A stretch of 9,387 nucleotides of DNA. Source: a virus. Its lineage: Duplodnaviria > Heunggongvirae > Uroviricota > Caudoviricetes. The stretch lies in IMG/VR virus record IMGVR_UViG_2684623171_000015; one strand, written 5' to 3'. Positions 1 through 3,000 of this stretch are shown piece by piece (the stretch's first letter is position 1; each line of letters opens with the position of its first letter). Position numbers: made by a program.

Positions 1-3000
1 TGTCAGTTATCATCTTCGGTTACGGTTATCGGCAGAACGCCCTGCCGCTGACAAGAGCTTATTTGCCTGACCAATCTACTCCACATGATAGATAACTATC
101 ATTTATAACATTTCATTGATTAGTCTTTATTTTTCACTATGTTACAAATAACAACTCCGTCAAAAACAGCGAAATTAACTACACCATTAACTACACCGTT
201 TCACGAACAATATCGAACAACCACGAACAAAGATCAACACGCTTTAACCGTTATCATTTTCCGGCCATCCGTTATGAAGCTGGTGGATGTTCCCCGATAT
301 GGGTATCCCCACCTACCTGGCTTTTTTTCCGGTTAAATGTTAATCAGGCTGGTGGCCTTTACATACCCTTGATCACGGTAATGATGATTCAGGTGCGTAC
401 CTTTTCCCCAGTGGGGTAAAAGCTCCAACCGTAACGATGTTCGTTGTGGTTGCCTTGATGGTCTGCGTGGTCATTATGACCATTCAGAATTTGAAGGGTG
501 ATGTTTCCGATCTCCTCAAATTGAGGATTGTGGAAGAATCAATGGGTTAGTCTTACTTTCCCAACATCCCCCAATGGGGGTTTTCGAAATAATCAATGGG
601 TTAGGCCATAGTGCAATTTTGCACTATGGAACAATTCCAACCAGTTATCGGCATCAGGCCCACCAGCCAACGCAATTTTGCGCTTTGCTTTAATCTCAGT
701 AAGTTACCGCGCCAATTTCCGCAGTCTGTGGAAATTGGGAAGAATCAACGGGTTAGGCTGGTTTCCCCGATGTTCGCCGCTGGCGAATTTCGAAAATATC
801 AACCAGTTACCGCCGTATCCCGATATGGTGATCCCCATATCGAGATTGGATACCTGGCTTTTTTTCCGGTTAAACGTTAATCAGGCTGGTGGGCTTTACA
901 TACCCTTGATCACGGTAATGATGATTCAGGTGCTTCCCCGATATGGTGATCCCCATATCGGGATAGATGCTGGAAAAATCAGCTTTTCGCCAGAACGGTG
1001 ACGGCCTTATCGAGTTTTTGCCATCCGCAATAGGTGATTGCCCTGAACGCTGTAGCGTCATTCTGGAAAAGGCTAACCGCCCCTGATTCGGTTTTTATTA
1101 CCGCCTCATCAGTTGGGGTTATAACCGTGGCTTCAACGTTAATAATCAGCTTTTGAGCGTCTATCAGCATCATGCGATCCGCCTGTTCGCTCACAATTAC
1201 CGGTATTCTCAAAAGCTCTATCTGCCAGAACTCAGCATCAGTAAGCTGTAAGGCGTTTTCTACGGGCAATATTAGCGACGACGTGGAAAGCGTGTTACCG
1301 TTCGCTATGTGCTTTTTGAAAATCTCTATGAAGTTTTCGGCCTCATCAGCACCATTAAGCACGCCCTCAGGGGATACGCCAGCCACCTCCTGATCACTGG
1401 AAAGAAATTTTTTATCTATTTCTTTCACCGATTCCGATGTGATCAAGTCTCTGATCGCTGAATTTGTACCAGGGGTGCTAAATTTGATTAGCTCGTTATT
1501 CAGCATCACAATAGCGCCAAGTTTGCACAATTTTAGCGCACTTTCGTTTACTTCTCCCTCTTTGACAGGGATTTCTTCGGCTTCTTTAAGCCATTTACTA
1601 CCCTTGCCTGATATTGAATGCAATTTTGCGCCAAACGGAAGATTAAGCGCGCTGCTGATTAGCTTGCCTGGTACAGACTGCGAAAAAATATACTCGCCAA
1701 GCTCTCTTACTATCGGCTCTGCCACCAGCGACGGCATGTTATCCGTAGTCATTCTGTTGACGATGGATTTTTCAAGAAATTTCGATACTGCCGGATCATT
1801 TCTTTTCGTCATCTCTATAGCGTCAGCATGGCTAAATTTACACGATGCCAGCACGCTGGCGGCGCGAACTGCTGACACGCCTTTCATGTTTTTACAGATC
1901 ATCTTCTTCCTCCTCCTGGAAGCACGGGTTTAGTGTTTCGTGAAAATATGGCATCAGAACAGCGGCGGCCTGTAACCGTATTTCGGTCGACTGCTGCTTG
2001 TCGTTCATGATTTCCGTGAGTACATCAATAGGGTCTGTGATGTATTCGCTCATAGTTCGCTACCTCAGTGTTTTAAGTCTGTTGGTGGCTTAGGGATGGG
2101 GAACCGATTTGAGTAGACACTAGCGGCATTGAGTTTTTTAACCTCTTTTTTCCCAATGCTGCCGATCTTGCGGTGGGTGAACTGGGCCAGCTTAAACGCG
2201 GCATCTAAAGCCAGTTTTGGATCTGTGTCCATGTTGTCAATCAGTATCCTGCCCATTGCTTTGATGGGGTCGGGTAGGCCGTTATCCATCATCTCAATGG
2301 TGTTAATTGATGCCCGTTCCGGTGTAACTTTTTCGGTAACTTTCTTTGTAACTTTTTTCGGTTTTGTAACCTGAAAAGTTACATCAGAAGTTACAGCCTT
2401 AAGATACTTTTTCACCTCAGGATCGTTGGATAGCTGCCAGCCTTTAACCCTTGCGGTCTTTTCGCTGTATCCCGCATGTATAGCGGCTTCCGTGGGATTT
2501 GCGCCCCTTGATAACGCATCAGCAAACCGCTTTTTTTTGGTCGTTAATGCCATGCAAAAACCTCGTTTTGAGGGGGTGTAACTTTTCGTGTAACTTTTTT
2601 GAAAAGCAAAATTTTCTACGAATGAGACGGGGGGCGGTGTCCAGGGTGATCGACTTTCCGGCCGGAACACTCCCCCCCCCCATGTCATTGCTCACCGAGT
2701 AACGAGATCAGGCCTTCAACTTCATTACTCAGCTTGTTTATTCGTGTCTCAAGCTCTGCGATCTTTTCCATCAATGGCGCTATGGTGTCTCTTGTTTCCT
2801 CGCCAATGGCCTTAATGATGCTTGCCTCGCGTTCTGTGATAGCCATTTGTTATGCCTCACCTGTTGCAATGCCCAGTCTTTCGCGTAACAGCACACGTGC
2901 AAGATGACCTATTGTTGGCGTGGCGGCTCTGCCGTAGATGCCAGCTTCATTCATCCGGCGAATAACATCGAATTGAATTTTTTTAAGCTCGTTTAGGATC

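Follow-up and report, generated by a model that had tools for sequence, protein, structure and literature searches.

The window analysed here, i.e. the whole 9,387-nt stretch of IMG/VR virus record IMGVR_UViG_2684623171_000015 (Caudoviricetes), is a 100% match to positions 1077179-1086565 of the chromosome of Escherichia coli O157:H7 FRIK2533. It carries a phage-inducible chromosomal island (PICI), and our subject is the late module of that island: a cos-like site, a gene for a small terminase (TerS), a 53-amino-acid (aa) open reading frame (ORF) and a gene for a 307-aa capsid homologue. The region is a new PICI of an already known sort with a textbook layout, and we propose that a complete island of ~9.5 kb, whose packaging and capsid end this module forms, probably exploits lambdoid prophages of enterohaemorrhagic E. 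coli (EHEC) with HNH-type cos cleavage.

Genes of the late module

The features of the late module are listed below in the order in which the island carries them.

2601..2681, minus strand: cos-like element, ~80 nt; G10 (2672-2681), ~37 nt, then ACACCGCCCCCCGTCTCATTCGTAGAAAAT
2322..2596, no strand assigned: AAGTTAC(A) repeat cluster, candidate TerS-binding (cosB-like) sites, from motif counts
2065..2553, minus strand: island TerS, 162 aa from the PGAP start; N-terminal helix-turn-helix and conserved C-terminal segment
1892..2053, minus strand: 53-aa ORF with acidic tail, homologous to the TerS C-terminal segment by phrog_641 and hhalign
979..1902, minus strand: HK97-fold capsid homologue, 307 aa, a Ccm-like candidate; corresponds to the capsid part of a helper-type protease-scaffold-capsid fusion

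The original prediction had placed a Terminase_2-type TerS here, and the searches agreed: the protein, encoded on the minus strand, matches Pfam Terminase_2 (E 2.5e-10) and phrog_641 (E 3.6e-43), and its N-terminus matches solved TerS DNA-binding domains. Aligned from end to end, it shares 46-47% identity with the TerS of Stx1a, Stx2c and PPompW phages (47% with that of Stx1a phage Stx1_14040), most strongly in the helix-turn-helix at the N-terminus and in one segment of the C-terminal part. A longer ORF, 2065-2688, that reads through the G-run was rejected as an artefact; it is unlikely to be real because the length of the run varies between alleles, and the conserved TerS start lies at 2553. 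The run has 10 G here (2672-2681), 7 G in an island of an O111 strain (L012) and 7-10 in relatives.

The capsid gene had been thought to follow terS directly, but a conserved 53-aa ORF (1892-2053) lies between them; this ORF and the cos-like site upstream of terS had both been overlooked. The 53-aa ORF matches positions 89-125 of phrog_641 (E 3.5e-7), and when aligned as a three-member family against the TerS alignment with hhalign it matched TerS residues 89-131 (95% probability, E 2.4e-8). The likeness is at the profile level only, as BLASTP did not align the 53-aa ORF with the TerS of either island or phage, and the ORF has no similarity to phage large terminase (TerL). Counterparts of 50 and 54 aa are present in the TerS-bearing islands of Arsenophonus and Serratia, and the TerS-less island of Klebsiella has none. 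The 53-aa ORF is a candidate modulator or blocker of helper TerS or of the contact between TerS and TerL.

The tentative assignment of the 307-aa protein as capsid-like proved right, i.e. it is an HK97-fold capsid homologue. Its matches of this fold (listed figures in brackets) were HK97 prohead I (12.5), the 80alpha capsid protein (11.6), the capsid of the capsid-forming PICI EcCI2 (10.9) and Ccm of SaPIbov5 (10.6), and the structure model has ~85 helical residues ahead of the E-loop. Met6 (1887) may be the true start. The protein belongs to a family of ~16 clusters, 307-322 aa long with 37 invariant positions, from Escherichia, Arsenophonus, Serratia and Klebsiella. Beyond this family, an exhaustive profile search reached mostly fusion proteins of 630-670 aa, matched over their C-terminal half, as its nearest outgroup, and the closest phage relatives, at 23-25% identity, belong to Stx1a-, Stx2c- and some Stx2a-converting phages and to PPompW prophages of O157:H7. 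The alignment to the 645-aa protein of Stx1_14040 covers residues 291-625 of the latter, which has a Peptidase_S78 prohead protease at 48-153 and a Phage_capsid domain at 386-635. Since the match is confined to the capsid part of the fusion, the island protein is without the protease and the scaffold-like middle; its first ~45 residues could conceivably serve as a leftover piece of scaffold.

Comparison of two alleles, with small counts, gave ratios of non-synonymous to synonymous substitution (dN/dS) of 0.29 for TerS, 0.15 for the 53-aa ORF and 0.17 for the capsid homologue.

In the related phages the gene order is HNH nuclease, ~290 nt of non-coding DNA, TerS, TerL, protease-capsid fusion and portal. 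Such an arrangement is reportedly typical of HK97-type cos phages with HNH-dependent cos cleavage. The late order of the island, i.e. cos-like site, terS, 53-aa ORF and capsid homologue, is colinear with the cos/TerS/TerL/protease-scaffold-capsid segment of the HNH-type cos lambdoid EHEC prophages, minus TerL and the protease-scaffold half.

Of 5426 complete E. coli genomes, 220 have the block of terS, 53-aa ORF and capsid gene with 95-100% identity, most of them belonging to O157, O103, O111, O26 and O121, and only 30 have the whole island. A 700-nt piece of the helper-type TerL gene was found in 1252 genomes, and a query joining this piece and the module also returned 1252; as the union count equals the TerL count, all 220 module-bearing genomes carry helper-type TerL. 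FRIK2533 itself has approximately six copies of it. In the O111 strain the block lies on another backbone, with a different integrase, a RepA helicase and a tRNA-Pro site; there too, no further coding unit stands between it and the chromosome. The module is likewise kept at the island end in Arsenophonus and Serratia. A search of species-representative genomes gave no confirmed relative, and the gene contexts of relatives come from exact-protein look-ups.

The homologous island of Arsenophonus nasoniae (CP123498.1; L003 1-20948) consists of integrase, AlpA, D5 primase, TerS, a 50-aa ORF and the capsid homologue, and lies inside a prophage, between head-completion genes (HK97-gp10_like) and tail chaperone/tape-measure genes, an arrangement of a helper-embedded PICI like those in PMC10111431. 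The relative in Klebsiella aerogenes (L006 9780-13512) has neither TerS nor the mini ORF and has an AAA_25-type replicase; its capsid homologue is followed by a 765-aa protein without Pfam match, a 69-aa ORF and the island end.

The cos-like element and its repeats

The cos-like element starts immediately past the termination codon of the small ORF that precedes it, some 50 nt ahead of terS, and aligns with the HNH-terS intergenic element of the Stx1a phage (L002 2523-2600), the 30-nt core being 90% identical. The Arsenophonus, Serratia and Klebsiella islands keep a cos-like element at the equivalent place. The exact phage 30-mer was present in 34 viral contigs, and in the 33 with assignable flanks the order was HNH, element, TerS/TerL and fusion (wherever present). 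These contigs span two lineages with no more than ~66% identity between their TerL and HNH proteins, and the element is therefore more conserved than the neighbouring genes. In the database record of phage Lys8385Vzw the final bases read ...CCGCCCCCCCT and the first ones CTCACGCAGAG..., both inside the element, which we read as a putative cosN region.

The repeats that lie next to this core differ between island and phage. Two AAGTTAC(A) copies stand just upstream of terS (2576-2584 and 2588-2596) and the rest, in either orientation, lie within terS, where a 9-mer search gave four (2322-2396) and a 7-mer count five. Seven AAGTTAC copies fall in the 440 nt past the cos core, and these are identical in the O111 allele. 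Allowing at most one mismatch, the 9-mer AAGTTACAC has 8 matches in the window against 1.8 expected, and none of 200 shuffles reached 8. At the equivalent place the Stx1a phage has five TGTTAAC copies between core and terS. The Klebsiella aerogenes relative, which has no TerS, has a core identical to that of the phage and phage-type GTTAACATGTTAAC repeats. The AAGTTAC repeats are candidate cosB-like TerS-binding sites. Within terS (window 2300-2400, ...KKVTKKVTEKVT...) they translate to repeated Lys-Val-Thr in the TerS linker; thus the candidate binding sites and a protein linker are encoded by the same bases.

E. coli cos PICIs share cosN with their helper and have a private cosB (PMC6739421). 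A shared cosN-like core next to different repeats fits this known logic, with a whole TerS in place of Rpp.

Island limits, other genes and the non-coding tail

The remaining features of the window are as follows.

85..106, no strand assigned: island/chromosome junction with att core; sequence GATAGATAACTATCAT, core ATAACTATCAT
107..978, no strand assigned: island tail, ~870 nt non-coding and repeat-rich (repeats and palindromes)
174..235, no strand assigned: arm-type repeats belonging to the attachment site; AATTAACTACACCATTAACTACACCGT followed by CGAACAA copies
2685..3426, minus strand: three small conserved ORFs (53, 64 and 83 aa) between primase and cos-like site; the 83-aa ORF matches phrog_1231
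3713..5467, minus strand: D5/P4-type primase-helicase (replication module); D5_N, DUF5906 and Pox_D5; phrog_864, E 9e-173
7078..7302, minus strand: AlpA-type regulator/excisionase; phrog_2790, E 7.9e-18; helix-turn-helix regulator in RefSeq
7394..8167, minus strand: 257-aa orphan ORF beside the integrase; GC 31-34% against ~47% for the island
8164..9387, minus strand: tyrosine integrase with arm-binding domain; Phage_integrase and Arm-DNA-bind_3 domains

Window positions 1-106 are core chromosomal DNA upstream of clpS, shared by 5425 of the 5426 complete E. coli genomes; where the island is missing, this DNA continues directly into yljB. In the FRIK2533 annotation clpS and clpA lie immediately to the left of window position 1, and yljB and cspD lie to the right of the integrase. 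The att core ATAACTATCAT, inside GATA[G/A]ATAACTATCAT, is found at window ~88-100 and in a second copy past the integrase (L001 ~18560-18572), giving an island of ~9.47 kb from att to att between clpS and yljB/cspD. The att core at both ends and the clpS/clpA flank mean that the island is complete and that no head genes lie just outside the window; further head genes there would have counted against the original prediction, and the flank holds clpS/clpA, core DNA and the att core instead. The core (window 85-106; L001 18553-18642) is at the edge of the small gene yljB, whose annotation overlaps window 1-106 in island-free genomes, and integration is therefore at or within the yljB end. Arm-type repeats (AATTAACTACACCATT[A/G]ACTACACCGT and CGAACAA runs) lie inside both ends, those at the integrase end at L001 18411-18475 and 18531-18550; they are candidate binding sites for integrase or AlpA.

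All island genes except one small ORF are on the minus strand. Those outside the lists include an Icd-like gene, small ORFs and a gene for a DUF4222 protein. Neither the ORFs, nor the Pfam and PHROG scans, nor the RefSeq annotation of the island revealed a portal, protease, TerL, tail or lysis gene, as had been noted earlier for portal, protease and TerL. The island thus described has the hallmarks of a PICI, i.e. integrase and att repeats, AlpA, primase, mostly unidirectional genes, small size, TerS and a capsid-morphogenesis gene. Small ORFs that look by eye like those at 2685-3426 also stand just ahead of the cos element in the Klebsiella island. For the 257-aa ORF (7394-8167), Pfam, PHROGs, NCBIfam and PADLOC all gave no match; its place is one typical of accessory genes, and it may be a cargo or defence gene. 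NCBIfam and PADLOC also gave no match for the 37-aa ORF described below, the 53-aa ORF or the other small ORFs.

Downstream of the capsid gene the module runs into non-coding repeats (window 107-978), as first described. An 88-nt direct repeat (314-401 and 851-938, 95% identical) forms, with palindromes, a duplicated unit. The palindromes have 12-bp arms, ATCCCGATATGG-N6-CCATATCGGGAT, and lie at 293-311, 816-842 and 937-965, one of them ending just 3' of the capsid gene stop; the O111 island likewise has a copy after its capsid gene (L012 ~8960-8990). They are not typical terminators, because no T run follows them. Rfam at gathering threshold and a tRNA scan gave no match anywhere in the window. 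Segments of the tail reappear at the tails of the phoQ-site PICI of O157 (L010) and of the O111 tRNA-Pro-site island (L012); window 322-550 is ~85% identical to L010 5001-5223, the chromosome-proximal end of the phoQ-locus PICI of O157:H7. A tail sequence common to different islands may have a function. The tail also holds a 37-aa hydrophobic ORF (MFVVVALMVCVVIMTIQNLKGDVSDLLKLRIVEESMG; 437-550, plus strand), opposite in direction to nearly all island genes and with a weak ribosome-binding site, whose frame is kept in the O111 tail (L012 ~8790-8900; 37 aa, C-terminus diverged). Its product may be a short membrane peptide, or the gene may be of a type I toxin-like kind.

Relation to known satellites and proposed role

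The original prediction had set the island apart from P4, from capsid-forming PICIs and, by implication, from the known layouts of satellites. The first two distinctions hold. Sharing with P4-like satellites is limited to the P4-type primase, AlpA, the Icd-like gene and the integrase class, and a P4-like satellite was ruled out as the main ORFs have no Pfam or PHROG match to the Sid, Psu or delta/epsilon families. Capsid-forming PICIs (bioRxiv 10.1101/2022.09.08.507074; PDB 9gyi) have their own TerL, portal, protease and head-tail connectors, and this class was likewise ruled out, as the island has no TerL, portal, prohead protease or connector genes. The third distinction fails (PMC10085698, PMC10111431). 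The PICI core used by SatelliteFinder consists of integrase, regulator, primase-replicase, a capsid-morphogenesis gene (commoner in Proteobacteria) and TerS, with a median size of 9.5 kb (PMC10085698), and a major-capsid gene is the commonest late gene of Gram-negative PICIs, present in 21 of 29 reference islands (PMC10111431). TerS and a capsid-morphogenesis gene are therefore published core parts, and the layout is canonical rather than exceptional.

The closest known layouts are PmCI172 of Pasteurella multocida and the five-component PICIs (PMC6092414, PMC10085698), which share with the present island integrase, AlpA, primase, TerS, a lone major-capsid homologue and a size of ~9.5 kb, as well as unidirectional genes, a late module far from the integrase and the absence of tail, lysis, portal and TerL genes. 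The order differs, with terS here before the capsid gene whereas PICIs usually have capsid then terS (PMC10085698). Compared with the PmCI172 type, the capsid homologue here is of the protease-capsid fusion lineage, the packaging site is cos-like rather than a presumed pac, and there is the extra 53-aa TerS-like ORF. PmCI172, with terS and a capsid homologue, forms small capsids, the link being a correlation only (PMC6092414); for the present island small capsids would be a prediction. For SaPIbov5 of Staphylococcus aureus it has been demonstrated that Ccm sits in pentamers and forces T=4 shells (PMC8569155). Ccm (PMC5052747, PMC8569155; PDB 7rwz) resembles the 307-aa protein in fold only, with no detectable sequence relation; it has a cleaved 87-residue delta domain, none of which is evident in the 307-aa protein, and SaPIbov5 does not itself encode a TerS. 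It is only for Ccm that a place in the pentamers and the prolate-to-isometric redirection are shown.

PICIs of the EcCICFT073/O-island-51 type with Rpp (PMC6739421), including that at the phoQ site (L010), are alike in having a helper-like cosN, a different cosB and a helper-type capsid homologue. That lineage has lambda-type helpers and Phage_cap_E, gpD and Nu1-like genes, and its Rpp re-targets the TerS of the helper; the present island, in contrast, combines a full TerS with a mimic of a TerS fragment, and the helpers to which it is matched are HNH-dependent and of HK97 type. A relation of the 307-aa protein to the lambda-E-type capsid gene of the phoQ-site O157 PICI was rejected for want of any similarity. 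The capsid E, gpD and Nu1-like TerS set of this second O157 PICI is unrelated to the present proteins, and two such unrelated capsid/terminase sets mean that PICI lineages carry copies matched to different helper types.

In the reading that we think probable, induction of the helper would lead to excision and replication of the island. The island TerS, acting on its own AAGTTAC repeats beside a cosN-like core cut by the TerL and HNH protein of the helper, would recruit the helper terminase to island concatemers, and the 53-aa TerS mimic would modulate or block the helper TerS or its contact with TerL. The capsid homologue, being without a scaffold, would build no shell alone and would co-assemble with the helper fusion protein, as Ccm does in SaPIbov5, with a changed capsid size or a lower helper yield as the result. 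The capsid copy may thus resize or poison helper capsids; co-assembly or poisoning is a standing hypothesis for the lone capsid homologues of satellites, and a plausible one. The most likely helpers are lambdoid prophages of the Stx1a, Stx2c and PPompW types.

This reading is supported by the fact that the closest phage relatives of TerS and of the capsid homologue are the same Stx1a/Stx2c/PPompW phages; by the HK97 fold with Ccm among the matches; by the cos-like element, kept in the same place in island and phage; by the helper-type TerL in all 220 module-bearing genomes; by the retention of the module in Arsenophonus, in Serratia and on a second E. coli backbone; by the repeats, which are of phage type in the TerS-less Klebsiella relative and different in the E. 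coli island with its own TerS; by purifying selection on all three genes (dN/dS 0.15-0.29); and by precedents (PMC10085698, PMC10111431, PMC6092414, PMC8569155, PMC6739421). Several observations weigh against it. The co-occurrence of module and TerL is confounded and inflated by the shared ancestry of EHEC lineages. Several bases of the island cos core do not agree with the phage 30-mer, and its cleavage is putative; the island TerS has almost the same recognition helix as the phage TerS, so that a private specificity is putative too. The structure model of the 307-aa protein is moderate (pLDDT 67) with an unresolved E-loop region, and its sequence has no evident cleavable delta domain, unlike Ccm, and no readable cleavage site. 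In other PICIs, capsid genes are reported to be dispensable for helper-assisted transfer (PMC10111431); in EcCICFT073, deletion of the capsid homologue c1499 left lambda interference in place and did not restore normal plaques (PMC6092414), and that island is packaged in full-size phage capsids (PMC6092414, PMC6739421). The EcCICFT073 data mean that a PICI capsid gene need not resize capsids.

The same data bear on the simplest alternative, in which only cos and TerS matter, island multimers are packaged in full-size heads and the capsid homologue is a dispensable passenger or backup from the helper late region. Besides the c1499 and capsid-size results (PMC6092414, PMC6739421), it is favoured by the arithmetic of packaging, approximately five island copies making 47 kb against a helper genome of 49,573 bp. 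A passenger, however, would hardly be expected to form a distinct family of 307-322 aa with 37 invariant positions in four genera, always in the terminal place, to show a dN/dS of 0.17, or to persist on different backbones and even in a TerS-less relative; moreover the protease and scaffold parts are cleanly gone, though a backup copy would need them. We consider this alternative unlikely. The capsid homologue could instead be purely a poison against the helper, or a defence against non-helper phages with related capsids, that caps or derails assembly and yields no usable small capsids. Mixed assemblies could indeed be defective, as the protein has no protease and scaffold portion of the helper type, and PICIs generally interfere with helpers (PMC6092414, PMC6739421). 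The literature consulted offers no like poison-only capsid homologue, though, PADLOC gave no match for the protein, and its linkage to dedicated cos/TerS packaging functions in a genome of 9.5 kb is in line with the use of small capsids by PmCI172 and SaPIbov5 (PMC6092414, PMC8569155), which makes a poison-only role decidedly improbable.

Colinearity with the phage cos-TerS-TerL-capsid segment is also consistent with origin by deletion, and so with a decayed remnant of a capsid-forming PICI or prophage head module rather than a designed minimal module. But none of the genes is broken and purifying selection acts on them, Arsenophonus, Serratia and the other E. coli backbone show the same reduction in content, the att borders are clean with integrase, AlpA and primase complete, and neither the ORF list nor the annotation contains pseudogene fragments of TerL, portal or protease; decay is very hard to credit as the explanation.

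Exploitation of HNH-type cos prophages could also take a more specific form, which we regard as conceivable but on balance doubtful, i.e. a three-part hijacking kit against HNH-dependent cos lambdoid phages, Stx-converting phages among them. Its parts would be TerS with a rewritten cosB by a shared cosN, the 53-aa protein as a blocker of helper TerS or of its contact with TerL, and a pre-matured capsid protein, without protease or scaffold, that resizes capsids as it dilutes the fused scaffold of the helper. If this were true, the 53-aa ORF would be a new kind of packaging-interference protein, with a function like that of Ppi or Rpp but built differently, and Shiga-toxin phages would be produced and spread less by EHEC strains with the island.

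As the layout is that of a textbook PICI, the understanding of satellites is unchanged. What the analysis adds is the naming of a likely helper group, the HNH/TerS/TerL lambdoid EHEC prophages including Stx1a, Stx2c and some Stx2a phages, and the bringing to notice of a small TerS-fragment protein. The relatives with and without TerS form a natural pair for the study of terminase re-targeting by cos-type satellites, and there is a testable link between a satellite present in ~4% of complete E. coli genomes and the output of Shiga-toxin phages.

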